IMG/VR virus record: IMGVR_UViG_3300045988_148808
Coordinates: 1-48,242 of that record
Reading direction: 5' to 3' (one strand)
Length of the DNA stretch: 48,242 bases
From: a virus
Shown: piece after piece, positions 1-45,457 of the stretch
How the letters are laid out: every line of letters starts with the position of its first letter
Numbering within the stretch: position 1 is the stretch's first letter
Translations under genes and position numbers: made by a program
Notes under the pieces: generated by a model
The model's database searches: none
What the model saw: the letters and a program-made list of their open reading frames with translations, nothing else
Told to the model about the DNA's origin: nothing

Positions 1-85
1 AAAAGTGGCTTCTGGTTTGTCTTTCAGACGGAGCAGCTCCGGAAGGGTTCGTGAGGCCGTCGAACGAATTTCTCGCAAAAAAAAC
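1..85. repeat. Terminal overlap, identical to 48158..48242 (genome closure)
   Basis: nt 1-85 (aaaagtggcttctgg...ctcgcaaaaaaaac) match the last 85 nt base for base. Confidence 0.95.
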
Positions 86-206
86 CGGATTGTCCGACAT
101 CGAGATTGCCATATCGTTTAACGCATTGCTTGATTTGTGTCTGATCGTAAGGACAAGCGAACTAATCAACGAATGTCCTGTTTACCGGATGGAGATGGGA
201 ATATGA
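3..206 (+). CDS. winged-HTH protein, 3' part of an 85-codon ORF that begins at 48106 across the junction
   Basis: Same frame as 48106..48242 through the overlap. TGA 204-206 overlaps the next start (ATGA). ...EKWLLVCLSDGAAPEGFVRPSNEFLAKKTGLSDIEI... resembles the wHTH of the following initiator. Confidence 0.65.
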   Translation, partial: KWLLVCLSDGAAPEGFVRPSNEFLAKKTGLSDIEIAISFNALLDLCLIVRTSELINECPVYRMEMGI

Positions 207-1015
207 GCATTGAGGCTATCAACTGGTCTTTTAGGGTTCGTGGGATCAAGTCATCTGAAAAGCTGGTGCTTGTCGCGCTGGCGAACTATGCCAACACAAA
301 CGACGAGGCGTGGCCGTCCATCAAGCAACTATCCGAGTGTACAAGTCTCGACAGAAAGACCGTGCTGAAATCAATAGGCATTCTTGTCGAGTGCGGTCTG
401 ATCGAATATACCGGTGTCAGCAAGGGAGAAACGAGAAGTGTTAAAACCTATCGCCTGAACACGGACTTGACCGATGCAAGCAGTCCCCAAAACGGTACTG
501 TTAAGCAGCCCCAAAAACGGAACTGTCCCCAAAATGGGACTGTCCCAAATTTCCCATTAAGCAGTCCCGAATTTCCCGCGAAACAGTCCCAAATTTCCCG
601 TGAAGAAGTACCAAATGTGGGACACGGAACCATCAATGAACCATTAAAGGAACCATCAGGGAACCGTCAAAAGGCGCAAGCGCCATTTTCGACCGACCTG
701 CTGATCCGGGAAGGAGTGCCTGATGACGTTGCCAGAGACTTTGCCGAATTGCGAAAGCGCTTGAAAGCACCGATATCGGAGACGGCAGTCAAGGGACTGG
801 TTCGTGAAGCACAAAAAGCGGGAATAACACTGACGGAGGTGCTGGAAACCGTTTGCGCTAATGGCTGGCGTGGATTCAAAGCGGATTGGGTAGCGAAAGG
901 TAGCGGAAGAAAAACGGAAACGATTGCCGAACGCAATGCACGGATCGAAAGAGAGATTTTCGGGCAATCGCTGGATGATGAGGCAAGGACCATCGACATG
1001 GAGAAAATCGCATGA
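203..1015 (+). CDS. replication initiator / replisome organiser (lambda O-like layout)
   Basis: Track ORF 137..1015; likely start ATG 203 (MSIEAINWSF). N-terminal wHTH (EKLVLVALANYANTNDEAWPSIKQLSECTSLDRKTV), iterons in the linker, C-terminal ...LTEVLETVCANGWRGFKADW typical of phage replication organisers. Confidence 0.75.
   Translation: MSIEAINWSFRVRGIKSSEKLVLVALANYANTNDEAWPSIKQLSECTSLDRKTVLKSIGILVECGLIEYTGVSKGETRSVKTYRLNTDLTDASSPQNGTVKQPQKRNCPQNGTVPNFPLSSPEFPAKQSQISREEVPNVGHGTINEPLKEPSGNRQKAQAPFSTDLLIREGVPDDVARDFAELRKRLKAPISETAVKGLVREAQKAGITLTEVLETVCANGWRGFKADWVAKGSGRKTETIAERNARIEREIFGQSLDDEARTIDMEKIA
481..599. repeat. iteron set A: six ~16-nt direct repeats, candidate ori
   Basis: C(A/T)G(T/C)CCC(C)AAA... 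units start at 481, 506, 523, 540, 562 and 584. The last three are CTGTCCCAAATTTCCC / CAGTCCCGAATTTCCC / CAGTCCCAAATTTCCC. Confidence 0.8.
626..669. repeat. iteron set B: four GGAACC(A/G)T(C/T)A-type repeats phased 11-12 nt
   Basis: ggaaccatca 626, tgaaccatta 637, ggaaccatca 649, ggaaccgtca 660. Confidence 0.7.
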
Positions 1016-1734
1016 ATGACGCAAATCGCAAAGAGCTTTACCAGCTGTTGAAACTTGCCTATGCCGGCTACGGGAAAAGTGCTCCCGATCCGGAAACATT
1101 CAACGCATTCGTGCATTTCCTCCGGCCATTCCCGTTGACAAGCATCAAGGTGGCACTGGAGGAACACTGCGACCGGTCGGAATTCGTGCCGACTGCCGTA
1201 GCGCTGGCCAGGCGATGCAAAGAAATGGATGGGAGACCGACAGCAGATGAAGCGTGGGCAATCGCACTGAAAAGCGCAAATGAGTCCGAAACAGTAGTCT
1301 GGACAAGCGAAATTGCACAAGCGATGTTCGCCTGCAAATCAATTCTGGATACCGGCGACAACATCGGTGCACGCATGGCGTTTCGGGATGCCTACAACCG
1401 GCTGGTCGATGACGCCAGAGCACAGCTGATACTGGTGAAATGGGATGTGTCGCTGGGGACGGATGCCCAGCGTCGGGAAATTGCCATCCATAACGCGCAA
1501 CGAGCTGGGCAAATAGCCTGCGACAGCACGCTTTATCCTGCCTTACCGGGTGCCCCGTCCGAAGAAGCCAGACTCAGGATTGCCCAAAAAACAAAAGAAC
1601 TGTTGGAAAACCTGAAGTCCGGCAGCCTGATGCGATACAGCCGGTCGAAAGAAATCGAGCGAGACCGAGTTGAGACAGCCAGACGTAAAGCGGAAATCGC
1701 AAAGGCAGTCGATGAATACCGAAGGGGATCATGA
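1012..1734 (+). CDS. replication-associated protein, possible helicase loader (G39P-like N-terminal region)
   Basis: ATGA overlap with the initiator stop. The N-terminus KELYQLLKLAYAGYGKSAPDPETFNAFVHFLRPFPLTSIKVALEEH recalls the G39P-type loader pattern. No NTPase motif. Confidence 0.45.
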   Translation: MNDANRKELYQLLKLAYAGYGKSAPDPETFNAFVHFLRPFPLTSIKVALEEHCDRSEFVPTAVALARRCKEMDGRPTADEAWAIALKSANESETVVWTSEIAQAMFACKSILDTGDNIGARMAFRDAYNRLVDDARAQLILVKWDVSLGTDAQRREIAIHNAQRAGQIACDSTLYPALPGAPSEEARLRIAQKTKELLENLKSGSLMRYSRSKEIERDRVETARRKAEIAKAVDEYRRGS

Positions 1735-1801
1735 AACCGCGACCGAAGCAGGTTTACCGATCCTCGAGGTCGGACGGCTGAAAAAAATGGATTAATGCGC
1801 C

Positions 1802-2359
1802 ATGAAGAACAGAAGAAAAGAAATGCAGGAGACTAATAAAAAAACACGAGGTCGAGACGGCGAGACACGCCGGAACATTCTGGCTTTTTGCAGTCAGGAC
1901 GCAAAAACGGCACGTGAGATTATTGACGGACTCTCCCTTTCGAAGACGGTGGTGTACAAGATACTAAAAAACCTGAGGGAGAAAAAATGGATAACCGTTC
2001 TTGACAAAAAGATAGGCAATAAATCGTTATATCTCGCAAAGGGATATAAAGGCGCCCCTTCTTCCGTCGCTAAACCGAAAGAAAAGGCGGGAAAGAAAGA
2101 TAGCGTTTCTTTTTCGCAAAAAGTCTTGGACTTTATCAAAGTCAATCCGGGGGTAAGCGCGTGGGAGATCGCCAGCAAGTTTTCCGTCAGTAGTAAAAAG
2201 GCTTCAGGAAGCGCGGAGTACCTCTGCTTCCGAAACAGGATTAGGTTGGAGAAAAAAGACGGGATCTACTGCTATTTCCCGGTATCCCGCGACTCCATCC
2301 CGCTTAACTTTCGAATTTGGGACAACGCAATACGGCATGTAGTGAGGAGCGCGATATGA
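1802..2359 (+). CDS. winged-HTH (MarR/ArsR-like) DNA-binding protein
   Basis: ...RRNILAFCSQDAKTAREIIDGLSLSKTVVYKILKNLREKKWI...; a second wHTH-like segment lies near the C-terminus. Confidence 0.6.
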   Translation: MKNRRKEMQETNKKTRGRDGETRRNILAFCSQDAKTAREIIDGLSLSKTVVYKILKNLREKKWITVLDKKIGNKSLYLAKGYKGAPSSVAKPKEKAGKKDSVSFSQKVLDFIKVNPGVSAWEIASKFSVSSKKASGSAEYLCFRNRIRLEKKDGIYCYFPVSRDSIPLNFRIWDNAIRHVVRSAI

Positions 2360-2586
2360 CACAAAATGCATTGATCATCGACAACATCAAGGCGTTATAC
2401 GGGTTGGGAAAAGATATCGACGTGGCGCCTCTCCTTGGTGTGACTGCCTCGTCTGTTTCCCATATGAGGCGCGGAGATATTTCCTTTTCACCCCGGATGT
2501 TCCTGTTCTTGTGCATCGACAGGGACATGCGACCAAGCCAGATGTTTATGGAGCTTGGATTACCGCCAGATTATTTCGAAAAATGA
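2356..2586 (+). CDS. small HTH protein
   Basis: ATG 2356 overlaps the previous stop (ATGA). HTH-like segment ...DIDVAPLLGVTASSVSHMRRG... Confidence 0.55.
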   Translation: MTQNALIIDNIKALYGLGKDIDVAPLLGVTASSVSHMRRGDISFSPRMFLFLCIDRDMRPSQMFMELGLPPDYFEK

Positions 2587-2900
2587 ACTTCATAGAATCT
2601 TACTTTAACGCCATCCATAAGAAACTGGCCAATCACTTCGGCATCCCTATTGAGGAAGTACATTTTTACGGTGTTTCCTACCTGATGGATCGGTTGACAC
2701 CAGTCACACCGGCACGGATGAAATTCGATACATACCGTTGGACGCTGTTAGGAGACTGCCCAGTGTGCCATGCGCCAAGCAATCAGGAGCACACATACTG
2801 TTCAAACTGTGGCAGGCGACTGTTGTGGCCGAAGAAAAAAGACTGGGCGAAACACGGTATCAGCACTGATGAATACATCGACAGTCAGTATGAAGAATAA
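2583..2900 (+). CDS. zinc-ribbon protein
   Basis: ATG 2583 overlaps the previous stop. CPVCHAPSNQEHTYCSNCG forms a CxxC...CxxC motif. Confidence 0.55.
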   Translation: MNFIESYFNAIHKKLANHFGIPIEEVHFYGVSYLMDRLTPVTPARMKFDTYRWTLLGDCPVCHAPSNQEHTYCSNCGRRLLWPKKKDWAKHGISTDEYIDSQYEE

Positions 2901-2950
2901 GCTGCTCAAATAAAAAACAAGGGCTTTATTGAGATATGAAAGGATAAAAC

Positions 2951-3310
2951 ATGGGAACCGAGAAAACAGCGTTATTGAATGCCCTAGAGGAGTATGAACG
3001 GGAAAAGAAAAAATACGGGGTAACGTCTGCTCAGGCGATGAAGTGGATGGGAACGATGCTGGCACTTGTACCGGAAGAGCTGAAAGAAAAAATCGTTGAC
3101 GCCGGTATTCGGCAAGGAGTGCTACCCAAACCGGATGGTTATCTGGCAGACGGAACACCGGTATATAGCTCCAGATTGATTGAAGATTTCTTCGGGGTGT
3201 CCCGGGATGAGATTAACTACCGGCTACAGGTACTTAACGAGGCGAGACAGTCTGTCGGCAAAGAACCATTGTCGTTCCTGGACGATACTCTCGTCCACAA
3301 AGTGCATTAG
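2951..3310 (+). CDS. hypothetical protein
   Basis: Clean ORF in operon orientation; an AAAGGA element lies about 9 nt upstream. No motif recognised. Confidence 0.55.
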   Translation: MGTEKTALLNALEEYEREKKKYGVTSAQAMKWMGTMLALVPEELKEKIVDAGIRQGVLPKPDGYLADGTPVYSSRLIEDFFGVSRDEINYRLQVLNEARQSVGKEPLSFLDDTLVHKVH

Positions 3311-3318
3311 GGGTAAAT

Positions 3319-3735
3319 ATGACCTGTATCCGATTTTCCGTTCCCGGCGCCCCAGTCGCAAAAGCCCGTCCGCGTTTCACGAAAAACGGACACGCCTACA
3401 CGCCCGATAAAACGCGCTCATACGAAGCGATCGTCAAGCTGTGTGCCATGAAAGCCATGAAGGGCAAAAAGCTGCTCACGGGCGCGATTTCGCTTTCCGT
3501 GACGGCGTTTTTCCCGATACCGAAATCCTGCACAAAGTCGGTCAGGGCAAAAGCATTGTCCGGTGAATTCAGGCATACAAAAAAGCCGGACTGGGACAAC
3601 GTCGGCAAGGTTGTATCGGACGCCTTGAATGGTGTGGTTTACGCTGACGATGCGAAGGTATCGCATGCGACTGTCGATAAGCGATATTCCGACTTTCCGC
3701 GGGTAGAAGTGTTGGTTGAATGCGAAAACGCGTGA
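3319..3735 (+). CDS. rusA: RusA-family Holliday junction resolvase
   Basis: FSVPGAPVAKARPRFTKNGHAYTP...KPDWDNVGKVVSDALNGVVYADDAKV is the classic RusA signature. Confidence 0.9.
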   Translation: MTCIRFSVPGAPVAKARPRFTKNGHAYTPDKTRSYEAIVKLCAMKAMKGKKLLTGAISLSVTAFFPIPKSCTKSVRAKALSGEFRHTKKPDWDNVGKVVSDALNGVVYADDAKVSHATVDKRYSDFPRVEVLVECENA

Positions 3736-3762
3736 GTTTTATGAAAAAAATCGGTTGAACTT

Positions 3763-4329
3763 ATGACATTGTTTGAAAACACCGAACAGGCTTTGATTTT
3801 CGCCTACAACTACACAGGTCAAAACTGCATCACGGCACGTCTGTCGCTGGAGCCATTTCCAACTACCGGAAAAGGACTGGGCGGGCTGAATGGCGCAGCA
3901 CAGGCAGGCATGATAAGGCGAGAAGTCAGTTCCGCCGGAAGGCTTATTGAAAGCCTGATAACGGCGAAATACGCGCCGATGTGGTTGCCTTGCAGCTGCG
4001 GTCATGCTTGCTGCTCTGGCAAGATCGAAAACAGGGAATGGGCGGAAGCGATCCCGTACATCGTGCTTGACGTGTGCAAAAACGCATTGCACGGCGCAGA
4101 TCGGGGGACGGTTGTCTGGTGTGTCAAGGCGTATTACAGCGGATCTATATTACCCATCAGGCAGATAGCCAGCATGGCAAGCGTCAGCGAAAAAACCATC
4201 ACGAGAAATTTTCCGAAGATCATCAATTATCTTCGGGGAACAAAGAGCAAAGAAGGTATGGACGCTGTGGCGTATCGTACTGTTGACCGGATTTTGACGG
4301 ATAAGGGGGTTGTTGGGGAACTGAAATGA
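3763..4329 (+). CDS. putative late-gene regulator (antiterminator Q-like)
   Basis: Sits after rusA as in lambdoid phages. Cys cluster LPCSCGHACCSGK and a C-terminal HTH-like IRQIASMASVSEKTITRNF. Assignment by position and motifs only. Confidence 0.4.
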   Translation: MTLFENTEQALIFAYNYTGQNCITARLSLEPFPTTGKGLGGLNGAAQAGMIRREVSSAGRLIESLITAKYAPMWLPCSCGHACCSGKIENREWAEAIPYIVLDVCKNALHGADRGTVVWCVKAYYSGSILPIRQIASMASVSEKTITRNFPKIINYLRGTKSKEGMDAVAYRTVDRILTDKGVVGELK

Positions 4330-4703
4330 AAAGAGATTGGGACTTGGTCAGGGATATTCTCGAAAAAGTCGAGGATGGATCCTTGCAAACGTATCTTTCC
4401 AAAGAGAATTTTATCGACAAAGGCATCACCGAAGAAGACATTTTCGGCCATATCGAAATCATGCTGGACGCCGGTATTTTGAAAAACGGGATTGTCTCGC
4501 GGGGATGGGGCGGCAAGTTCTCCCAGTGGGATATGCAGGGCATTTTCATCTCAATGCAAGGGCATGACTTGCTGGACGCATTGCGTGACCAAACCGTTTG
4601 GATGCGTATCAGACAGAAGGCACGTCAATCTGCCGTTTCCATTTCATGGGAGTTTATCAAAGCAGCGATACCTGTTGTCATGAACGAGTTATTGAAATCG
4701 TGA
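4326..4703 (+). CDS. DUF2513-like wHTH protein
   Basis: MKRDWDLVRDILEKVE...GHIEIMLDAGIL...MQGHDLLDALRD matches my memory of the DUF2513 pattern. ATGA overlap with the upstream gene. Confidence 0.6.
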   Translation: MKRDWDLVRDILEKVEDGSLQTYLSKENFIDKGITEEDIFGHIEIMLDAGILKNGIVSRGWGGKFSQWDMQGIFISMQGHDLLDALRDQTVWMRIRQKARQSAVSISWEFIKAAIPVVMNELLKS

Positions 4704-4711
4704 GAACAGAG

Positions 4712-4909
4712 TTAAATTTTTTCGTTGATACCGGCCTGCCGCAGAATGCTGTTTGCAGTATGACGGGAATCGACTGTTACGGGAACAGCAAAAGATTTCC
4801 GGGATATTGGAGAAAACCACATTTCATGGCTTCCCTTGGCTTGTCTGCGAAATTCGCAGTCGTGAGCAAGAAGGATTTTCCGCAATTGCGGATAAAAAGA
4901 AGCGCCCAT
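4712..4909 (-). CDS. hicA: HicA-family toxin-like protein
   Basis: ...LRKILLAHDCEFRRQAKGSHEMW...VPVTVDSRHTANSILRQAGI resembles the HicA/YcfA fold pattern. Abuts the upstream antitoxin-like ORF. Confidence 0.65.
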   Translation of the reverse strand: MGASFYPQLRKILLAHDCEFRRQAKGSHEMWFSPISRKSFAVPVTVDSRHTANSILRQAGINEKI

Positions 4910-5203
4910 TTAATTGAATGTGACGGTTTGACGTTGAACAAAAACATAGCTCACTTCGTAGTAAGCGTCACGGACAGGGAATCCGTTGTCAGCGAGCAGT
5001 TCCGGAATGACCAGATTGGCGCGATCAATGACAGCATTAAGGCTCTCACCTTCTGTTGCAAGCCCAAGTTCATCGCAGATAGCTACCCATACGTTTGCTT
5101 CCGGATCATATACCACTTCCACTTCAAAGAAGTGGTCAAGCCGGCGTGTGCTCACTATATGCGGTGCTTCTACTCCCTCTTTCACAAGTTCGTTTTTTTT
5201 CAT
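4910..5203 (-). CDS. hicB: HicB-like antitoxin (DUF1902-type)
   Basis: Likely start ATG 5203 with an AAGGAG SD. ...FEVEVVYDPEANVWVAICDELGLATEGESLNAVIDRANLVIPELL resembles the HicB N-terminal domain. Confidence 0.6.
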   Translation of the reverse strand: MKKNELVKEGVEAPHIVSTRRLDHFFEVEVVYDPEANVWVAICDELGLATEGESLNAVIDRANLVIPELLADNGFPVRDAYYEVSYVFVQRQTVTFN

Positions 5204-5227
5204 GGCGTAGGCTCCTTTGCCTGTATT

Positions 5228-5257
5228 TTGACACATGGATGAAAATATCGCTATACT
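5228..5257 (+). promoter_or_regulatory. sigma70-like promoter (TTGACA-18 nt-TATACT)
   Basis: TTGACA 5228-5233 and TATACT 5252-5257; faces the KilA-N gene. Confidence 0.55.
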
Positions 5258-5263
5258 GACATC

Positions 5264-5470
5264 GCACCGGAAAAAGACGGTGTCGGGTTTGACAGCCCGA
5301 ATCTCACAGGCGGACAGCCGCTAGCCAAGCGGTATTTTTTTGTCCGTTGCATGGCTTCGTCTATGGGCAAGCCATGTGGGAAGCCGCAAGGCTTGCCGGT
5401 ATCCTGTGAGCCGGTCTGTCAACCCGCATGGTTTCGCCCACCCTTTTGACAGGGGGTAGGCGATTGATTC
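5264..5470 (+). ncRNA. structured RNA / long structured leader upstream of the KilA-N gene
   Basis: Closing helix 5285-5295/5416-5425 plus 5304-5310/5403-5409 encloses three hairpins (5311-5346, 5350-5376, 5381-5394 with a GCAA loop). An internal hairpin plus T7 is terminator-like. Confidence 0.5.
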
Positions 5471-5494
5471 AACAATATTCACAGGAGCATAACC

Positions 5495-6202
5495 ATGCAA
5501 GCACTCATTATAGGCACATCAGAAGTTCGTCAGATTGACGGTCTATATTCTCTCAATGATTTACATAGAGCATCTGGAAATGAAAATCGTCATCGTCCGT
5601 CTCTGTTTATCGAAAATAAACAATCTCAAGATTTAATAGCAGAAATTACCAAAGCAGGAATTACTGCTTTGCGCACAAAAAAGGGCGGGACACAAGGCGG
5701 CACCTACGCCTGCAAGGAACTGGTCATCGCATATGCCGCATGGATAAGCCCAGCATTCCATCTCAAGGTTATCCGCGTATTTCTCGCCGAAGCCGGACGC
5801 ACATTACCCGAGAAACAGGACATCAACCTTCTGGACAAGGACTATTTTGCCAAGGTGCGAGATATTGCGATCAAGTTTGCCGATGATTGGGTGCGTGTTG
5901 GCAAAGGCGAGGACGTTCACCCTTCCCTGACGATTCCGGATGACGTGCTTGCCGGCATCATCGCCCAGCAGATCAGCCGACAGAACTTCCGCCTCTACGT
6001 GGATTATGCCGGACAACTGCATGTAGCCCCGATACCAAACAAAAGTCCCTATGAAGGGCTGGCAGAAGCGATTGCCGATCCGGGGAATATCGGTCTGACG
6101 GATGAGGTGATCGAGGAAATCGGCGCGGCATGTGTCAAGGCACTCGCCTACCGTGCCCATTACAGGAAGTCCGTTATCGGCAAGATCAGGGGGACGAAAT
6201 GA
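5495..6202 (+). CDS. KilA-N domain protein (antirepressor-like)
   Basis: ...IDGLYSLNDLHRASGNENRHRPSLFIENKQSQDLI...GGTYACKELVIAYAAWISPAFHLKVIRVF is a KilA-N signature. AGGAG SD lies 7 nt upstream. Confidence 0.8.
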   Translation: MQALIIGTSEVRQIDGLYSLNDLHRASGNENRHRPSLFIENKQSQDLIAEITKAGITALRTKKGGTQGGTYACKELVIAYAAWISPAFHLKVIRVFLAEAGRTLPEKQDINLLDKDYFAKVRDIAIKFADDWVRVGKGEDVHPSLTIPDDVLAGIIAQQISRQNFRLYVDYAGQLHVAPIPNKSPYEGLAEAIADPGNIGLTDEVIEEIGAACVKALAYRAHYRKSVIGKIRGTK

Positions 6203-6283
6203 AAAGTTTTGTCCTGGATAGTTTTTGTCTGATAATGTTTACTTGTGCGATGTGGTTGTTTCTGCTGATCTGATCGCATAATG

Positions 6284-6309
6284 ACGTGGGGGTGCAACAC
6301 CCCTCACGT
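6284..6309 (+). terminator. hairpin after the KilA-N gene (weak terminator candidate)
   Basis: ACGTGGGGGT-gcaac-ACCCC(T)CACGT followed by only TTT. Confidence 0.35.
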
Positions 6310-6350
6310 TTGGCGAGTATCTTACGGTGTTGAGGCGAAAGAAAAATATC

Positions 6351-7895
6351 ATGAAAAAAATACTGTTTGTATGTTTGTGTTCAATTTTTATTGTTGGTTG
6401 TGAAGTAGGAAAGCCTCCGCCTCCTTCGCTGAATGAAAATGCCGTTTGGTACACCAAGGAAATAACAAAACGTCGGATCCTTTCGTCAATTCTGAATGCC
6501 ACCAATGACGTGTCCGACACCATCAAACAAAGAACGTATGGACTTTACGATGTTGTTGACATAGAAGATATTAATTTTGTTTCCAAGCAAAACATTATTA
6601 ATGCCGAACGTCAATTTAAAGATAAAAAGTTTATAACAAGTGGAAAAGTTTACGATATAGGCCGTGGTGTATTTGGGCCTTACTTAATCGTATATTCTGA
6701 AAGGTCGCCTGCAGACGTTTTCGGGGCGGACTTCAAGGTAAAAGATGAATCTAGCCTTGGAAATGTACGGAAGGGACAACGTGTTTCACTGGCATGTGAA
6801 AAGATCAAGTTTTTGCCGTCGCGTGCTGATTGCGAAATGCTAGATGATCTAATAGCAAGAAAAGGGGATGCAGTAGATACGTTGGTAAACTCCATTTTGA
6901 ATGGAAAATCATCATGGGATGAAACATTTGATTTGCAGACGAAAAGAGTTTACTCGATCGCCAGCAAAATGCCCTCAGACAGTGTATGTTTTCATGCACC
7001 TGATGTGCCAGAATGTCGCAAGGACTATAAGCGGGCACAGGCTATTTATGAAAAAGAAACTGGCGATAAGGATGGTAGCGCTGATTTAAAAGAGCCTGTT
7101 TCCGGCGCAGCTGAATCACAAAATGAAGACAAAAACGGTAAAAAATCCGGTGCAGAAATTAGAGCGAATATCTGCGCTCATTTCATCGCCGACAACATAC
7201 ACAAAATGGCGATGACTCAGTTTGGATATGAAGCGAAATCTTTTTCCGTATCTGAAAAGGATATATATCCAGAGGCACCCAATATTTGGTATGAAGTAAA
7301 AGGCGCAAAACTGAAAGACAAATATGGAAAATGGCACGATGTGAAATTTTCGTGTTTCGTAAATCGAGAAACCAACGAAATATTTAATGATGTGGTGCTC
7401 ACTTTAAGCGAGAAACAGGGAAATGAACTGACACGGGAAAGGGACCTTTTTTTAACAGACGACCAATTACAGGAAGAAAAGCGTCAACAAAAACTGATTT
7501 ATATGGTTAATCCTGTTTTTGCTAAACCTGAAACCAGTTGGGCTTTCGCGCATCGGGATGATGTTCATCCGGTAGAAACGGCTCCTGCAACCGATGGATC
7601 AGATAACCAGCGAGCAAAAGCGTGTTATAAACAGGTGATAAAACACCTTACCCCTTCTCCGAAAGCCCAAAAACAATGGGTTGTTATTTCGGAAAGCATG
7701 AATGAAACGGAAGCGACATTTGTTGCGCAAAGACGAGGACATACCATTAACGTTGGCTGGTCAAAGGGTATGGGAAGCGACGCTCTTCAAATTTGCAGTG
7801 TGAGAGAAACTAACGCGGATGGAGTTGAGGTATTTAATGATGAAGGTTCTGATTTTGCCTCAGCGTCTTCCCCCGTTTTCTTTAAACAAAAATAG
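6351..7895 (+). CDS. large lipoprotein (514 aa) with an OB-fold-like (tRNA_anti-like) segment
   Basis: MKKILFVCLCSIFIVGC has a lipobox. ...FKDKKFITSGKVYDIGRGVFGPYLIVY...VRKGQRVSLACEKIKF is an OB-like pattern. The gene is visibly A+T-rich. Confidence 0.8.
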   Translation: MKKILFVCLCSIFIVGCEVGKPPPPSLNENAVWYTKEITKRRILSSILNATNDVSDTIKQRTYGLYDVVDIEDINFVSKQNIINAERQFKDKKFITSGKVYDIGRGVFGPYLIVYSERSPADVFGADFKVKDESSLGNVRKGQRVSLACEKIKFLPSRADCEMLDDLIARKGDAVDTLVNSILNGKSSWDETFDLQTKRVYSIASKMPSDSVCFHAPDVPECRKDYKRAQAIYEKETGDKDGSADLKEPVSGAAESQNEDKNGKKSGAEIRANICAHFIADNIHKMAMTQFGYEAKSFSVSEKDIYPEAPNIWYEVKGAKLKDKYGKWHDVKFSCFVNRETNEIFNDVVLTLSEKQGNELTRERDLFLTDDQLQEEKRQQKLIYMVNPVFAKPETSWAFAHRDDVHPVETAPATDGSDNQRAKACYKQVIKHLTPSPKAQKQWVVISESMNETEATFVAQRRGHTINVGWSKGMGSDALQICSVRETNADGVEVFNDEGSDFASASSPVFFKQK

Positions 7896-7996
7896 CCAGC
7901 TCAAACATCTAAAAAAGAAAAACTGTTGACATGTCCGAAAAAATAGGACAAAATGCATGTTAATTTCCAAAATGGATGAATGCATCCATAAGATAA

Positions 7997-8023
7997 AGCC
8001 TCCGAAAATTCGGGGGCTTTTTT
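7997..8023 (+). terminator. Rho-independent terminator
   Basis: AGCCTCCG-aaaatt-CGGGGGCT followed by a T run. Confidence 0.7.
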
Positions 8024-8112
8024 GTTGCATCGCATAAAACAAAACCCCTGAACGTGGGCGGGTTAGTAAAAGTGATTGAAGCGCTTGAAAAGTGCCGCGC
8101 AGCAAGGCGGTT

Positions 8113-8205
8113 ATGCTGGGGTGTTCTGTGTGCGGTATTCGTTGTATATGCTCTTCATGCTATTGCCGCCATCATAAATTCGGTCTCAAGCATTTGTTGA
8201 AATGA
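8113..8205 (+). CDS. 30-aa Cys-rich peptide, stop overlaps the methylase start
   Basis: MLGCSVCGIRCICSSCYCRHHKFGLKHLLK. AAGG lies 5 nt upstream. Its TGA overlaps the ATG of 8202 (ATGA), and the methylase has no SD of its own. Confidence 0.3.
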   Translation: MLGCSVCGIRCICSSCYCRHHKFGLKHLLK

Positions 8206-9338
8206 GATACGGACTCCCCTACAAGGGCAGCAAAAACAAAATCGCCGAATGGGTTGTAAGCATTCTGCCTCATGGCGGAACATTGTGCGATCTGTTTTGT
8301 GGCGGATGTGCCGTGACACACGCGGCAATGGTTTCCGGCAAATACGACCGGTTCATCATCAACGATATCGATCCAGTTCTTCCCGGAGCGTTCGTCAAGG
8401 CGATATCCGGAGGGTTCGCCGATGAGAAGCGCGTCATCGACCGTGAAACGTTCGACCGACTCAAGGATGCAGACCCCTATGTCGCGCTGTGCTGGTCGTT
8501 CGGAAATGGTGCAAAAAACTATCTCTGGAATGACGAAATCGCAGGGGTGAAACTGCTGGCGTGCAAAATGATCATGGCGGACACATGGCAAGAACGCAGG
8601 CGATACTATCGGCAATTCATTCTGTGTTTACAGCAAAAACGGGAAGAGCTTGAAGAAAGAAAAGCCCGCCAGGCTGATTACATCAGGGAGCATGGGGAGA
8701 CGGAAGACTATCTGCGCAATGAATTGAGAAATGCCCTGAAAACATCCGGGAGGACGGCTGCCGACGTTGATCGTCATCTCGGGACGAAAGGCATGGCCGG
8801 CCACTACTTCGGGAAATCACAATGGGCGTTCCCGACAAGAGCGGCATACGAGAAAATGCGAGAAATCCTTCCACTGCCGGAATATGACTATTACAGTCAA
8901 GGCCTGAAAAGTCTGGAAAGACTGAAAAATCTGCAAAAAGTAGAAAGTCTGGAAAGAATACAAGATCTGGAGAGTCTGGAGCGACTGGAAAGATTTCAAA
9001 AGCTACAAGGAGTAGAACCCATTCCAGAAGTACGAACGGGAGATTATCGGGATATTGCCCTTCCGGATGACGCCGTGATTTATTGCGATATCCCTTATCA
9101 TGGGACAGACGAATACAAGAGCGCCTTCGATCACGAGGCGTTTTACGATTGGGCGGAAAGCCGGAAACAGCCGGTATTCATTTCCGAGTATGTGATGCCG
9201 CAAGACCGGTTCAGATGCATTGCCGAACGCAGGAAAACATCCAGTTTTTCCGGTTCGAGCAATTCGACGAAAACGATAGAAAAGATTTTCATCCCGATCC
9301 ATCAGCCATACAGCCCGCCAGCAAGCGGGCTTTTTTAA
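8202..9338 (+). CDS. DNA N6-adenine methyltransferase (D12/Dam class) with a repeat-containing insertion
   Basis: N-terminal YKGSKNKIAEWVVSILP...LCDLFCGGCAV and a catalytic-type CDIPYHGT (DPPY-like) motif. Confidence 0.85.
   Translation: MRYGLPYKGSKNKIAEWVVSILPHGGTLCDLFCGGCAVTHAAMVSGKYDRFIINDIDPVLPGAFVKAISGGFADEKRVIDRETFDRLKDADPYVALCWSFGNGAKNYLWNDEIAGVKLLACKMIMADTWQERRRYYRQFILCLQQKREELEERKARQADYIREHGETEDYLRNELRNALKTSGRTAADVDRHLGTKGMAGHYFGKSQWAFPTRAAYEKMREILPLPEYDYYSQGLKSLERLKNLQKVESLERIQDLESLERLERFQKLQGVEPIPEVRTGDYRDIALPDDAVIYCDIPYHGTDEYKSAFDHEAFYDWAESRKQPVFISEYVMPQDRFRCIAERRKTSSFSGSSNSTKTIEKIFIPIHQPYSPPASGLF
8901..9011. repeat. imperfect tandem repeats coding (K/E)SLERL heptad-like units inside the methylase
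   Basis: AGTCTGGAAAGA at 8910 and 8946, AGTCTGGAGCGA at 8973. Protein: GLKSLERLKNLQKVESLERIQDLESLERLERFQKLQG. Confidence 0.7.
9313..9336 (+). terminator. Rho-independent terminator in the methylase 3' end
   Basis: GCCCGC-cagcaa-GCGGGC followed by T6. Confidence 0.65.
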
Positions 9339-9343
9339 TGACG

Positions 9344-9742
9344 TCAACGTGCCATTTTCTCGATAGCCGAATCCGCCAGAAAAGCAGAGCGGCTTCGGAT
9401 ATTATGTGTTTGCAGGTAAGCATCAATAGATGCCAACAGACTGGATGGAAGCGTGATAGTCAGCCTTTCTGTTTTTCCAAGATATGGAGTGATGTCGATA
9501 TCCACCAGCCCCACGTGGAAGCCTTTGTATTCCGGATTTTTGACAATATCCTCGACTTTAGAAGGAGTTGGTATTTTCCGGTCATTTCTGGCCATGTTAT
9601 CCAGCTCAATTTTTGCAGCTTCCACGGCAACGGCATAGCAGTCTTCAAACGTATCGGCTGCCGTGAATACGTCCAGATCGGGTATTCGGACATCACAGGC
9701 TGTTTTTTCGTCGCCCAATTCGATAACGATAGGATATTTCAT
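9344..9742 (-). CDS. hicB: HicB-family antitoxin
   Basis: Likely start MKYPIVIELGDEK... Typical HicB N-domain plus a C-terminal RHH-like TITLPSSLLASIDAY...RSAFLADSA. Confidence 0.85.
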   Translation of the reverse strand: MKYPIVIELGDEKTACDVRIPDLDVFTAADTFEDCYAVAVEAAKIELDNMARNDRKIPTPSKVEDIVKNPEYKGFHVGLVDIDITPYLGKTERLTITLPSSLLASIDAYLQTHNIRSRSAFLADSAIEKMAR

Positions 9743-9805
9743 GATATCTCCTGTTTGTTTCACGGTTTGACAAGGCATGAATGATGAGGAAAACCTCATC
9801 ATTTA

Positions 9806-9985
9806 TTAAAGACCGGCTTTCTTTAGCAATCCTTTGACAGTACCGAGTTTCAAATCTTTTCTAGGGTGAGGCACAGCAAGATTGTTAGGATTGCCCGCTT
9901 TCGTAAAAATATGATGACTGCCATCTATTCTTACGAGTTTCCAACCATTATCGGTTAGCAACTTGATCAGTTTTTTACTGTTCAT
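9806..9985 (-). CDS. hicA: HicA toxin (59 aa; below the ORF-track cutoff)
   Basis: Own translation: MNSKKLIKLLTDNGWKLVRIDGSHHIFTKAGNPNNLAVPHPRKDLKLGTVKGLLKKAGL, the canonical HicA. Confidence 0.9.
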   Translation of the reverse strand: MNSKKLIKLLTDNGWKLVRIDGSHHIFTKAGNPNNLAVPHPRKDLKLGTVKGLLKKAGL

Positions 9986-10058
9986 GCCTTGTTTCCATTT
10001 CTCTATGACATGTAATTATTATACATAAATATGTATTAAAATGCAAGAGTAAAATAGT

Positions 10059-10430
10059 ATGTCAAAAGAAGATTTAAAACCCGTTCGAAGCAAAGACGAA
10101 GCAAAGGAAAGAGGCAAAAAAGGCGGCATTGCTTCCGGTGAAGCAAGGCGTAGGAAAAAGACAATCCGTGAAACGCTGGAAATGATGCTGGCCGGCCAAA
10201 TGCCGGATGGAGCGACAAGACGGGATGCTATTGTGACAGCACTCCTTGAAAAAGCGTTGTCCGGCGATGTACGCGCATTTGAGGCAATCCGGGACAGTGT
10301 CGGCGAAAAGCCAACAGAAAAAATGAACGTATCCACAGCAGGCGGTGTGGTGTTCCCGACAAGCATTTTATTGGTGGCAGGTGAGCCAGGCAAAAATACA
10401 GATACCCCCGAAGCTGATAGCGGTGTTTGA
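10059..10430 (+). CDS. putative terminase small subunit
   Basis: Lies directly upstream of and overlapping TerL. Basic N-terminus ...GKKGGIASGEARRRKKTIRETLE...GDVRAFEAIRDSVGEKP. Called by position and pattern. Confidence 0.5.
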   Translation: MSKEDLKPVRSKDEAKERGKKGGIASGEARRRKKTIRETLEMMLAGQMPDGATRRDAIVTALLEKALSGDVRAFEAIRDSVGEKPTEKMNVSTAGGVVFPTSILLVAGEPGKNTDTPEADSGV

Positions 10431-11604
10431 CGGGCCAGCTCGATACCGTGGCGCACATGGTGGGCGAGGAAGTGCAAAGACCATGACTTTCGCCAAGATG
10501 AGCGCCATTCGCGGATACATGTTCGGTCAGCAGCTTCAAAGCGGCATCATCCTGTGTGGGCGCGAGTTCATGAATTCCCTTGAGGATTCCTCAATGGAAG
10601 AAGTGAAACAGGCGATTCGTTCAGAGCCGTTTCTGAATGCGTATTACGATATCGGCGAAAAATACATCCGTTCCGTCAACGGCCTGATCGAATACAAGTT
10701 TGTTGGTCTTCGCAACAATCTGGACAGTGTGAAGTCGAAAGCTCGCATTCTTATAGCGTGGGTGGACGAAGCGGAAAACGTCTCCGAATCTGCATGGTTG
10801 AAGCTGATCCCTACGGTCAGAACGGAAGGCTCTGAAATCTGGGTGACGTGGAACCCCGAGAAAAAGGGAAGTCCTACCGATCTGAGATTCCGGCAGAACA
10901 AAATGCCGGATGCACGGATTGCCGAAATGAACTATATGGACAATCCATGGTTTCCGTCCGTGCTGGAAAAAGAACGCCAGAACGACCTGAAGCGTCTGGA
11001 CGATGCGACTTACCGCTGGATATGGGAAGGGGCCTACCGTGAAAACTCTGCCGCACAAATCTTTGCTGGCAAATACGAAATACATGATTTTGTTGCAGCG
11101 TCGAACTGGAACGGCCCGTATCAGGGAATAGACTTCGGTTTTTCAAAAGACCCGACGGCGGCGATTCGGTGCTGGATACATAACGAATGCCTGTGGATTG
11201 AACATGAGGCCTTCAAGGTAGGGTTAGAGCTTGATCAGACGACAGATTTCATTGCCGCACGCATTCCACGTTTCAGTCAGTACGTTACGCGAGCAGATTC
11301 TGCACGACCGGAATCCATTTCTTACTTGAAGCGTCATGGATTGCCCAGAATTTCTCCAGCAGAAAAGGGCAGGGGTTCTGTAGAAGATGGGATATCGTTC
11401 ATCAAATCTTTCAGGAAAATATACATCCACCCACGATGCAAAGAAGTCATCAATGAATTCCGGTCTTACAGTTACAAGATCGACCGTCTTTCTGGGGATG
11501 TGCTTCCGGATGTTGTGGATGCATTCAACCATGGAATTGATGCCCTGCGTTATAGCCTTGAACCCGTCATGAAAAACAGGCGACCTTTCAACATAAAACT
11601 CTGA
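10381..11604 (+). CDS. terL: terminase large subunit (PBSX/Terminase_3-like)
   Basis: ...PARYRGAHGGRGSAKT (Walker A), ...LIAWVDEAE (Walker B-like). Start uncertain: GTG 10381 preferred, track gives 10345. Confidence 0.85.
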   Translation: MSQAKIQIPPKLIAVFDGPARYRGAHGGRGSAKTMTFAKMSAIRGYMFGQQLQSGIILCGREFMNSLEDSSMEEVKQAIRSEPFLNAYYDIGEKYIRSVNGLIEYKFVGLRNNLDSVKSKARILIAWVDEAENVSESAWLKLIPTVRTEGSEIWVTWNPEKKGSPTDLRFRQNKMPDARIAEMNYMDNPWFPSVLEKERQNDLKRLDDATYRWIWEGAYRENSAAQIFAGKYEIHDFVAASNWNGPYQGIDFGFSKDPTAAIRCWIHNECLWIEHEAFKVGLELDQTTDFIAARIPRFSQYVTRADSARPESISYLKRHGLPRISPAEKGRGSVEDGISFIKSFRKIYIHPRCKEVINEFRSYSYKIDRLSGDVLPDVVDAFNHGIDALRYSLEPVMKNRRPFNIKL

Positions 11605-13067
11605 TGCGAAAAACGTTGAAAAAACCTTCCTATCGGCCCTTAAACATTTCGAATTATCTGTTTGAAGACGACAGCATTGACGGAATCATCGACTGGCGCG
11701 AAAAACTGAAACCGGCGGAAACCCTCGGGAAACCCGATAAAGATGCACAAATGGCAAACGACGAAGCCTGTGCTTACGCGTGGGGGCTATTGTCTCACTC
11801 GCTGGAACTCGGCCAAATGCCAACGACCGCATCGTTTCTGGGCTATCCGGCATTGCAGGACATCGCCCAGAACGGACTGATACGCGCATGCGTTGAAACG
11901 GTTGCGGACGACATGACCCGCGATTTCGGAAAAATCAAGAGCGAAGAACCTGACAAGGCGGAGATTGTTGTTGCGATGAACAACGCGCTTGAGCAATTCC
12001 ACATCCGGGATGTCTTGCATGAGGTTGCAGAAAAAGTTGGCTATTTCGGCGGGTGTCTGGTTTACATAGATACAGGCGCAAATGATGCGGAATTGCAAAC
12101 CCCGCTCAACATGGGCGAATACAGCAATGAATTGCGCAATCTCAAAGCATTCCGGGTAATTGACCCTATCAATGTGTATCCGGGAGCCTACAACAGTGCG
12201 GAACCTTTGAAAGCGGATTTTTTCAGGCCGGATCACTGGTATGTCATGGGCAAGCGCGTCCACGCATCAAGGCTGATTCGCTTTGTTGCCAACGAAGTGC
12301 CACAGCTATTGAAGCCGGTTTACAACTTCTTCGGTATCGCACAAGCCCAACTGCTTTGGGACTATGTGATGCATTTTTCGGAGTGCCGTGTCGCCACCGC
12401 GAACATCGCCAAGAAATACAGCATGACCGTTTTCAAGACGAACATGTCTGCCACGCTGATGGACGGCGCCGGAACGGACCAGATCAACAATCGTATCCGG
12501 TTGATCGCCCGTTATCAGGACAACAACAGCATAACGGCGATAGATAAGGACAACGAAGACATCGTCAAGATCGAAACGCCGATTGGCGGGTTGACTGATA
12601 TCACCAAACAGGGACTTGAGTTTCTTGCAGCGCTCAATCGCACACCTGCCGTTAAATTGCTGGGTATATCCCCTTCCGGCTTCAATGCCACAGGGGAAAG
12701 CGATCTGCGGAATTACAACGACCATATTTCCAGTCAGCAGGAAAAAGTTTTCGGACACGGTCTGAAAACCATCATCGATTGCATCCATGTTTTTCTTTTC
12801 GGAAAAACAAACAAGGGGCTGATATTCGAATGGGCAGAGCTCGGCGAAGAAGATCAGGCCGCCATGGCGAACACCCAGAAAGTAAAAGCCGACACGATGG
12901 CGGTTTTGTTGGATCGAAGCGTTATCAGCCCGGAAGAAGCGCGTCAGGCTGTCGCATCCGATCCTGACAACCCACTGTCATTTATTGACCCCGCGGACGT
13001 CCCTGAAGGCGAGCCTGTGGATTTCGGCGATCTGGATGACGCGGACAAAGCCGGTGAAATCTACTGA
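11604..13067 (+). CDS. portal protein (DUF1073-type)
   Basis: 487 aa, immediately after TerL with a start/stop overlap. Sequence pattern recalls DUF1073 portals. Confidence 0.8.
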   Translation: MRKTLKKPSYRPLNISNYLFEDDSIDGIIDWREKLKPAETLGKPDKDAQMANDEACAYAWGLLSHSLELGQMPTTASFLGYPALQDIAQNGLIRACVETVADDMTRDFGKIKSEEPDKAEIVVAMNNALEQFHIRDVLHEVAEKVGYFGGCLVYIDTGANDAELQTPLNMGEYSNELRNLKAFRVIDPINVYPGAYNSAEPLKADFFRPDHWYVMGKRVHASRLIRFVANEVPQLLKPVYNFFGIAQAQLLWDYVMHFSECRVATANIAKKYSMTVFKTNMSATLMDGAGTDQINNRIRLIARYQDNNSITAIDKDNEDIVKIETPIGGLTDITKQGLEFLAALNRTPAVKLLGISPSGFNATGESDLRNYNDHISSQQEKVFGHGLKTIIDCIHVFLFGKTNKGLIFEWAELGEEDQAAMANTQKVKADTMAVLLDRSVISPEEARQAVASDPDNPLSFIDPADVPEGEPVDFGDLDDADKAGEIY

Positions 13068-44740: not shown

Positions 44741-45457
44741 TCAGTTCCCGAAGTTCTTGAAATTCATCGGCAGGGCGCGCAACACTTTGCCAATGATTCG
44801 TGTTTCGTCTGGTTTTTCGCTCCAGAGCCAAGACGCATATTTTTCATTGTCAGATTGGACGAGAATATTTCTGCCTGCAAGAGAAAGTCTCTTACAAAGT
44901 AATTCACCACCGTGCAGAATGATATATATCCCTTCGCCTTTGTACTCAGTGGCGACTGTATCGACAAAAAGCAGATCATTCGGATTGATGGTGGGTACCA
45001 TGCTGTCTTTTGCAGCAAGAATGACCTTTATATTTCCTGCTCTATTCAAATTTCCGATTAATTCCTGTGCTGTTTTGCTGGACATGACCAGACGCTGAAC
45101 AATCTCAGGATAATCAGGATTAAGCAAACCAGTTCCACAAGCCGCACGAACATCGAGTAAATCGTAAACGACACTGTTTCCATATTTTGATGTACGTGGT
45201 ATCAGGTCAAGCGGCCCATCTTCTTGTTGTGCGTCGTCTTTTTGGTTGTTAGGGTACTTGGGTCCCAAGCCTGTTTCCAACCATAAGGCGTTTACTCCCA
45301 GTTTGGCCGCTATTGCGGCAACGTAAGTAGTTTTTTACGAGGCGCCGCTTTCAAGTTGTGAGATAGCAGATTGTTTTATGCCAACAGCATCCGCAAGCTG
45401 TTGTTGAGACAGCCCTTTTAAATTTCTTTCTTCTTTTAATCTTCGTCCAATATTCAT
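44741..45457 (-). pseudogene. cI: CI-type repressor (XRE HTH + S24 peptidase) with an in-frame TAA at codon 41
   Basis: MNIGRRLKEERNLKGLSQQQLADAVGIKQSAISQLESGAS-TAA(45335-45337)-KTTYVAAIAAKLGVNALWLETG... then ...AAKDSMVPTINPNDLLFVD...LCKRL. Confidence 0.85.

Follow-up and report, generated by a model that had tools for sequence, protein, structure and literature searches.

In bacteriophage P1, a plasmid prophage, the c4 RNA of the immI region is annotated as a processed 77-nt trans-acting RNA. The c4 precursor is cut to about 77 nt by RNase P, and c4 acts via icd, whose translational repression leads to Rho-dependent termination. The site of action is the RBS of this short gene, and the P1 effector, Ant1, has an ANT/KilAC domain. 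In P4, the CI RNA and its targets seqA and seqC show a related arrangement, in which a processed immunity RNA lies between two target copies on one transcript. CI RNA acts by transcription termination on replication genes; no Rfam model matched, and our comparison with P4 is literature-based. In Gifsy-1, translation of AnrP, the antirepressor encoded downstream, is switched on by the short terminated IsrK RNA, and orf45 is translationally coupled to anrP (IsrK paper). A processed RNA of Gifsy-1, STnc1160, sits at the position expected for C4, and the IsrK paper also names SeqA of P4 a structural homologue of IsrK.

Arrangements without icd are known as well. When the isrK consensus was compared with GenBank phages, phiV10, TL-2011b, D6 and Klebsiella prophages were matched. 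In phiV10, TL-2011b and Klebsiella ST11-OXA245phi3.2, isrK (76-80 bits) and C4 (66-78 bits) are directly followed by an antirepressor/Bro-N gene, and isrK, C4 and an antirepressor gene without icd have also been described in the literature for APSE phages. The layout examined in the present study is therefore of an already known kind.

Here, we analyzed a viral DNA stretch of 48,242 nucleotides (hereafter the window), in which the gap at positions 5228-5494, just before a KilA-N gene, is very probably a c4-type (immI-type) immunity cassette built on a C4 antisense RNA. An Rfam scan of the whole window at the gathering threshold returned a single match, C4 antisense RNA (RF01695), at 5359-5445 on the plus strand, with a score of 65.4 bits against a cut-off of 45, an E-value of 1.4e-10 and all model positions (1-87) covered. 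A permissive Rfam scan of positions 5000-5800 revealed two additional sub-threshold matches just 5' of C4. The first was isrK (RF01394) at 5264-5339, with 46.6 bits (cut-off 50) and a full-length alignment that takes in a terminator, and the second was c4-a1b1 (RF03163) at 5251-5303, with 35.0 bits (cut-off 46.7). The original prediction for this gap had suggested a c4/immI-type riboregulator by analogy and had named an Rfam scan as a check. The analogy is borne out by the C4 match above the gathering score, by collinearity with P1 immI and by covariation of the recognition sites. Membership in the C4 family, the anatomy of the element, its complementarities and their covariation are established at the sequence level. 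In addition, small overlapping ORFs on either strand (5251-5370, 5321-5500, 5340-5459 and 5428-5538) were rejected because they lie inside the conserved RNA.

The predicted mature C4 RNA has a length of 78 nt (5365-5442, plus strand), its ends being assigned by alignment to the annotated P1 c4 (4344-4420). Its fold comprises an outer stem (5364-5381 with 5423-5440), a hairpin 1 with a GCAA loop (5381-5394), a hairpin 2 (5395-5415) and a single-stranded junction. When folded in isolation, the region 5364-5441 reaches -43.5 kcal/mol (z = -4.7) and adopts the same shape as P1 C4, including the same 3' ACC overhang. Two recognition elements are exposed in this structure: b' (UCCUGUGAG, 5402-5410) is carried by the hairpin-2 loop, and a' (CUGUCAA, 5416-5422) occupies the junction. 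The hairpin with the GCAA tetraloop had been correctly placed by the original prediction and corresponds to C4 hairpin 1. The cloverleaf into which it had been drawn did not stand, as the family-conserved fold is the three-way structure of C4 (outer stem, two hairpins and single-stranded junction). A tRNA-like or cloverleaf reading was ruled out, both the Rfam model and the family keeping this three-way structure.

The dense self-complementarity of the gap is real and well above chance. The leader from 5264 to 5500 folds at -112.3 kcal/mol, compared with -78.4 +/- 4.8 kcal/mol for shuffled sequences (z = -7.0). This property had been noticed before, although two of its components, the outer stem and the a2 site at 5446-5452, had been overlooked. 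When the leader is folded whole and unprocessed, the MFE fold favours pairing in cis between a1/b1 and a'/b', plus a hairpin at 5349-5377, over the C4 outer stem. The long closing helix described previously (5285-5295 with 5416-5425) is a genuine complementarity with one bulged U and is present in this fold, but it is really the pairing of a1/b1 with a'/b'. Cofolding of mature C4 with the mRNA gained only about 5 kcal/mol, with C4 rearranged.

Both recognition elements have complementary targets on either side of C4. Upstream, a1 (UUGACAG, 5289-5295, plus strand) lies in the loop of a small hairpin and is complementary to a' (5416-5422), and b1 (CUCACAGG, 5303-5310, plus strand) is complementary to b' (5403-5410). 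Downstream, a2 (UUGACAG, 5446-5452, plus strand) begins 3 nt past the predicted C4 3' end and is complementary to a'. The b2 target (UCACAGGA at 5479-5486; whole element 5479-5487, plus strand) is complementary to b' and lies over the SD sequence AGGAG (5483-5487), and the ATG of the KilA-N gene follows at 5495, 8 nt beyond SD/b2. The predicted duplexes have energies of -9.9 (a1-a'), -13.2 (b1-b'), -9.7 (a2-a') and -14.2 kcal/mol (b2-b'). The 48 kb contain three occurrences of the pattern TTGACAG-N(5-35)-TCACAGG, against a chance expectation of 0.00 from shuffles; two of these occurrences are the target sets on the plus strand and the third is the reverse complement inside C4. A second, upstream target copy (a1/b1) on the same predicted transcript is what the C4 family expects, and the geometry of the window is modal for this family (a1 at -72, b1 at -58, a2 at +3 and b2 at +36 relative to C4). 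The heptamers TCACAGG at 5304 and 5479 and CCTGTGA at 5403, on which the original prediction was built, are all in place. The proposed pairing of CCUGUGA with the ribosome-binding site agrees with the complementarity to b2 over the SD, but recognition is predicted to be bipartite, involving a and b rather than the heptamer alone. No copy of a C4 with the same b'/a' was detected in viral, genome and metagenome contig collections by exact or degenerate searches; b' (CCUGUGAG) is thus a predicted RNA-encoded immunity specificity with no copy in these three public collections.

The covariation of these sites, proposed earlier as a check on homologous regions, supports antisense pairing: the a and b sites change in a matched fashion in comparisons with P1, with a divergent relative and across 62 C4 loci. 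Between P1 and the window, a', a1 and a2 are identical, whereas b' (UUUCACUAACG), b1 (GUUAGUGC) and b2 (GUUAGUGA) of P1 all differ together. Since these P1 elements are unlike those of the window, the predicted b specificity of the window is new. In the divergent locus L154, whose regulated protein is 79% identical and whose C4 scores 60.2 bits, both sites have switched with matching changes: a' CUGCUAA accompanies a2 UUAGCAG, and b' CCACGUA accompanies b2 UACGUGG on the SD. Metagenomic contigs coding for a 98%-identical protein have a leader identical to that of the window.

For the wider family, a degenerate C4 core pattern was run against viral and genome contigs, and 62 distinct C4 RNAs with enough flanking sequence were tested. 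The hairpin-2 loop is hypervariable among these loci, yet it complements the flanks of its own locus, the matching sites typically lying some 60-70 nt before C4 and some 30-40 nt after it. The mean longest complement of a locus's own loop was 6.5 nt upstream and 7.1 nt downstream, compared with 4.9 and 4.5 nt, respectively, when loops were swapped among loci. The downstream complement continues into GGAG, an ATG follows after 6-9 nt, and the site lies on the SD in most of the 62 loci. Nearly all C4 RNAs of the pattern-selected set have CUGUCAA or CUGCCAA as a', a position at which the selecting pattern itself fixed NTGNCAA. As a' hardly varies and b' is hypervariable, specificity appears to reside mainly in the hairpin-2 loop; judging from these comparisons, it is b' that determines the specificity of C4.

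The secondary structure is also supported by the family. In an alignment of 44 C4 RNAs, hairpin 1 showed 4-22 double-sided compensatory changes per pair, and the MAFFT/RNAalifold consensus recovered both hairpins and the base of the outer stem. The middle of the outer stem was missed because the MAFFT alignment is not structure-aware, and this part was taken from the Rfam alignment. The first downstream ORF of the C4 loci mostly encodes 60-130 aa. In five loci a Bro-N or P22_AR_N antirepressor gene follows directly, and the direct RNA-to-antirepressor layout without icd was observed in at least eight C4 loci; this layout is the usual one for another RNA, sRNA-Xcc1 (see below).

Upstream of C4, the predicted sigma-70 promoter (5228-5257, plus strand) consists of a -35 box TTGACA (5228-5233) and a -10 box TATACT (5252-5257) separated by an 18-nt spacer. 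It agrees with 11 of 12 consensus positions, in accordance with the original prediction. In alignments, the -10 box coincides with that of P1 promoter P51b and is matched by the initial positions of the Rfam c4-a1b1 model. Transcription is predicted to start near G5264, to which position 1 of the isrK model aligns. The following IsrK-like leader (5264-5341, plus strand), recognized by the sub-threshold isrK and c4-a1b1 matches and by its fold, carries a1/b1 and is composed of a hairpin (5264-5283), the a1 hairpin (stem 5284-5287/5296-5299, CGGG/CCCG; loop UUUGACAG), the b1 site and an intrinsic terminator. The terminator (5317-5341, plus strand) has a stem-loop at 5317-5333 and a T7 run at 5335-5341, was found by both the terminator scan and the fold, and lies where a terminator-like hairpin had previously been suspected. 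Around it, 5309-5315 pairs with 5342-5348 in an outer helix, and it is homologous to the IsrK terminator of the Rfam model and to GCGGAC...GCGGTATTTTTGTGTCCGT in P1. If transcription ends here, a short RNA of approximately 78 nt (5264-5341) is the predicted product. Of the C4 loci, 17% have a terminator in the leader, compared with 3% of control stretches, and the window belongs to this subgroup.

Between the terminator and C4, a further hairpin had been proposed at 5350-5376. It does form alone (5349-5377; -17.6 kcal/mol compared with a shuffle mean of -9.8 kcal/mol), but it takes up the 5' strand of the C4 outer stem, with which it competes, and it is not kept in the closest divergent relative. 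In a direct comparison, P1 shared the strong hairpin of the window, whereas its counterparts in L154 and phiV10 were weak, and the hairpin was therefore left out of the conserved parts. A duplex-energy comparison of the 5'-flank hairpin gave -16.3 versus -14.9 kcal/mol, with only 23 loci parsed.

Pairwise alignment demonstrated that the annotated immI region of P1 is collinear with the window over about 275 nt, between the -35 box and the start codon. Both promoter boxes (-35 and -10) are shared, as are the a1 hairpin CGG(G/T)TTTGACAGCC(C/T)G, the terminator hairpin GCGGAC...GCGGTATTTTT.TGTCCGT with its outer helix, the C4 core GTCTGTCAACCC and the a2 site TTTGACAG with GGGTAG behind it; the ATG follows at the same spacing. 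P1 and the window are identical in a' (CUGUCAA) and in the a sites (UUGACAG), and a1 and a2 occupy the same positions. P1 b1 aligns with b1 of the window, although its sequence is different. The Rfam scores of the P1 region are 68.8 (C4), 35.1 (isrK) and 51.0 bits (c4-a1b1), compared with 65.4, 46.6 and 35.0 bits, respectively, in the window. The previously suggested likeness to P1/P7 immI thus holds for order and spacing but not for gene content, as the window has no icd ORF: the ATG after b2 opens the 235-aa KilA-N ORF itself, and the RBS lying under b2 is that of the effector gene, not of icd. Because icd is absent, the P1 mechanism is not transferable step by step.

The remaining systems differ from the window in other features. 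The isrK element of phiV10 scores 75.9 bits against 46.6 bits for the leader of the window, and the N-terminal domain of the effector is Bro-N in the isrK+C4 phages (phiV10, TL-2011b, Klebsiella and APSE) and KilA-N in the window. The leaders of Gifsy-1 and the window both contain three hairpins, the last of which is an intrinsic terminator; Gifsy-1 has antQ upstream of isrK, and the cassette in the window is preceded by RusA and an unassigned 188-aa ORF. On these comparisons, the cassette in the window is a known layout with a different effector N-domain (KilA-N) and a new b specificity.

Based on homology with P1 and the placement of the sites, we infer the following mechanism. The near-consensus promoter would produce a transcript from about 5264, and the leader terminator probably stops a fraction of transcripts to give an IsrK-like short RNA. 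From the read-through RNA, a C4 of about 78 nt (5365-5442) would be excised, as in P1. Its b' loop and a' junction would pair with b2 and a2 just downstream on the operon mRNA, and, since b2 covers the SD of the KilA-N gene, C4 would block KilA-N translation both in cis and in trans. The antirepressor would then be silent in the lysogen, and the C4 pairing would provide RNA-encoded immunity specificity. The leader a1/b1, possibly as the terminated IsrK-like RNA, may compete for C4 and serve as a decoy or autoregulator.

An additional role of the short leader RNA (5264-5341), namely an IsrK-like action in trans on the mRNA or on C4 that switches KilA-N translation on, is conceivable, and we would give it somewhat less than one chance in two, on the unlikely side. 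This reading overlaps with C4 repression and does not exclude it. The leader has the same three hairpins as IsrK, including the terminator, although its 46.6 bits fall below the isrK cut-off of 50. Such activation has been shown for IsrK, orf45 and anrP in Gifsy-1, where STnc1160 sits at the C4 position; the window, however, lacks an upstream ORF like orf45 that could provide translational coupling. The predicted binding of a1/b1 to C4 is about as good as that of a2/b2 (-9.9/-13.2 versus -9.7/-14.2 kcal/mol), but the presence of a leader terminator in just 17% of C4 loci means that it is not essential to the family.

It is improbable that pairing at both flanking targets mainly causes premature transcription termination, in the manner of P4 CI RNA, instead of a translational block. 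The three-site layout (target, RNA, target) is equal in the two systems. As Biere et al. are said to have found in 1992, the end result of P1 c4 action is Rho-dependent termination, which counts for this alternative. The structural homology of SeqA to IsrK stated in the IsrK paper points in the same direction. However, b2 is placed right on the SD, 8 nt ahead of the ATG, here and in most of the 62 C4 loci, which is the placement predicted by a translational block, and the terminator scan detected no terminator-like site between b2 and the gene.

A purely cis-acting switch, in which a cloverleaf and alternative SD/anti-SD pairing would operate with no separate trans-acting RNA, is very improbable: such pairing is possible and the whole-leader MFE fold does form the closing helix (5285-5310 with 5403-5425), but what the family conserves is the outer stem of C4 plus two hairpins, the hairpin at 5349-5377 is not kept in L154, and the P1 homologues are annotated as processed 77-nt trans-acting RNAs, so that by homology the regulator would be a processed RNA able to act in trans.

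The gene placed under C4 repression by the preferred reading (5495-6202, plus strand) encodes a 235-aa protein with a Pfam KilA-N domain at residues 11-96 (E = 6.4e-20). Over the N-termini, it shares 40% identity with P1 KilA, and no similarity to P1 Ant1 was observed. KilA-N was the sole domain detected by Pfam, with no Ant-type ANT/KilAC domain in this protein; P1 Ant1 has the latter domain, whereas the effector in the window combines KilA-N with an unnamed C-domain. This C-terminal half is approximately 73-93% identical to the C-termini of many proteins, among the matches listed, that have Bro-N, pRha plus ORF6C, or KilA-N as their N-domain; some of these carry the name antirepressor. As far as these identities indicate, a shared C-terminus with differing N-domains follows the domain swapping seen in phage antirepressor families. 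The 235-aa protein is accordingly best viewed as a putative antirepressor-type effector, KilA-N proteins as such not being proven antirepressors. The KilA-N gene can thus be assigned as the probable guarded effector of the cassette.

By its gene content, the window is a lambdoid temperate phage, with O-like and helicase-loader-like replication genes, RusA, NinB, ERF, SSB and an integrase. An S24 CI-like repressor is also encoded, on the minus strand at about 44741-45457, and may be a target for the antirepressor. No C1-type operator was identified, in which respect this phage differs from P1; comparison of 5196-5266 with the CI/Cro region and elsewhere for a shared operator yielded nothing beyond 9-10-mers at chance level and an AT-rich inverted repeat of 6 nt. 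A HicAB pair is transcribed divergently from the C4 promoter, and the cassette itself is located downstream of RusA and the 188-aa ORF. The 321-nt region had no DNA match in GenBank phages (distant mode) or in complete E. coli genomes, megablast of window positions 1-12000 returned no more than a weak match, to the terminase of an Erwinia phage, and a KilA-N-based locus search in genomes yielded only two distant loci. An unlabelled 290-nt gap can now be annotated as a probable second immunity (immI-like) region in an uncharacterised lambdoid gut phage.

While c4 biology as known is unchanged by this locus, its connection with sRNA-Xcc1 (RF02221) is the sole part of wider interest. Like C4, sRNA-Xcc1 has two internal hairpins and a junction. 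Its hairpin 1 is unlike that of C4 and contains a conserved AAUACAAYACC...GGGAA motif, and Rfam keeps sRNA-Xcc1 outside the C4 clan. In the parts of the literature available to us, sRNA-Xcc1 is described as a Xanthomonas/Xylella sRNA tied to virulence, or as integron-encoded, and no C4-like mechanism for it is proposed there; one paper merely notes an adjoining ORF6N gene. From its sequence features, sRNA-Xcc1 appears to be a second branch within the C4 type of immunity RNA. If this is true, it would be a C4-like phage immunity RNA, and C4 and sRNA-Xcc1 would form one superfamily. That the leader-RNA cassette is, more generally, a portable immunity module with swappable specificity, of which C4 is only one branch, we regard as an evenly balanced proposition. 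If it holds, the terminated leader of the window would be a C4 decoy, making the cassette a three-RNA switch.

Before homologues of the KilA-N gene in three other loci (L001, L155 and L157), the C4 position is taken by sRNA-Xcc1, with scores of 66.3, 58.1 and 48.7 bits, respectively, relative to a cut-off of 53. An sRNA-Xcc1 pattern matched at least 120 viral contigs, from which 93 distinct RNAs were analyzed. Most of the listed RNAs begin with ...AUGG and end with ...GCC(A/G)CC, as C4 does. When flanks within 130 nt upstream and from +10 to +70 downstream were examined, the same complement of at least 6 nt to hairpin-2/junction occurred on both sides in 83% of the 93 RNAs, compared with 6% when the RNAs were swapped among loci, and the downstream complement lies on the SD. 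Among the 75 distinct first ORFs after sRNA-Xcc1, domains included Phage_pRha (17), KilA-N (17), Bro-N (14), AntA (8), ORF6N (5) and P22_AR_N (3).

At the position held in the window by C4, the antisense RNA, homologues of its KilA-N gene were found to be preceded on three comparison contigs by sRNA-Xcc1 (Rfam RF02221), with copies located at 1381-1463 of L157, 599-683 of L155 and 2362-2443 of L001. This family was compared across a set of viral contigs (L161-L280), which yielded 93 distinct phage copies. In 83% of these 93 copies, the hairpin-2/junction segment of sRNA-Xcc1 has complements at two places, in the leader 5' of the RNA and on the Shine-Dalgarno sequence 3' of it, versus 6% when the RNAs were swapped among loci. 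Moreover, the genes lying 3' of the phage copies encode, in the majority, antirepressor types with pRha, KilA-N, Bro-N, AntA or ORF6N domains. sRNA-Xcc1 thus appears to be a C4-like immunity RNA that has gone unrecognised. In L157, two sRNA-Xcc1-like RNAs (1181-1253 and 1381-1463) occur in tandem about 130 nt apart, separated by a promoter-like TTTACA...TATACT sequence; tandem or clustered copies of sRNA-Xcc1 have been described in Xylella in the literature.

Among C4 loci of Pseudomonas genomes, many (L029, L033, L046, L052, L054, L055, L060, L077, L082 and others) have, as the first ORF after b2 (the C4 target site on the Shine-Dalgarno sequence), one for a conserved 80-97-aa protein that begins MLKIVPDPP... 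or MKKITPNPP.... This ORF takes the same position as icd, the short ORF that follows c4 in phage P1.

The C-terminal half of the KilA-N protein forms a domain of about 130 aa (window 5807-6199), for which no match was found in Pfam. The same domain, at approximately 73-93% identity, is common to proteins whose N-terminal parts are of the Bro-N, pRha+ORF6C or KilA-N type; N-domains thus swap rapidly within this antirepressor-type family. Immediately 3' of the KilA-N gene lies a 522-aa ORF (6327-7895), which may be co-transcribed with this guarded gene; its N-terminus resembles a lipoprotein signal (MKKILFVCLCSIFIVGC), and its family matches are all weak. On the other side of the cassette, the minus strand (4712-5203) encodes HicA, a toxin of 64-65 aa, together with an antitoxin of 97 aa that is DUF1902/HicB-like. 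Both genes are divergent from the C4 promoter, whose -35 box is separated from the hicB start codon by just some 25 nt.

As a whole, the window (1-48242) looks like a complete, circularly permuted genome of a lambdoid temperate phage. Its replication genes occupy 0.1-1.7 kb and its structural genes about 10-35 kb; the integrase follows at 36.1-36.9 kb, and the immunity and NinB region at 44.7-48 kb. No near DNA relative was found among GenBank phages and E. coli genomes. ENA and Logan metagenome assemblies contain contigs with a 98%-identical KilA-N protein and an identical leader, as well as one, from a Hadza gut metagenome, that is more distantly related.

Two further pairings were observed around C4. 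At 5349-5377, its 5' flank GCAUGGCUU is similar to the 3' strand of the C4 outer stem and complementary to the 5' strand of that stem, AAGCCAUGU. The resulting alternative hairpin is possibly specific to the precursor, on mixed evidence. It is strong in P1 (-22.1 kcal/mol), and weak in phiV10 and in L154, the relative with a 79%-identical regulated protein. At 5434-5463, the 3' tail of C4 is able to pair with the adjacent downstream GGGGGUAGGCG in the unprocessed transcript, and this hairpin partly sequesters the C4 target site a2, leaving no more than 5447-5450 of it in the loop. An equivalent arrangement exists in P1, built from other stem bases (CCUGC...GCAGG).
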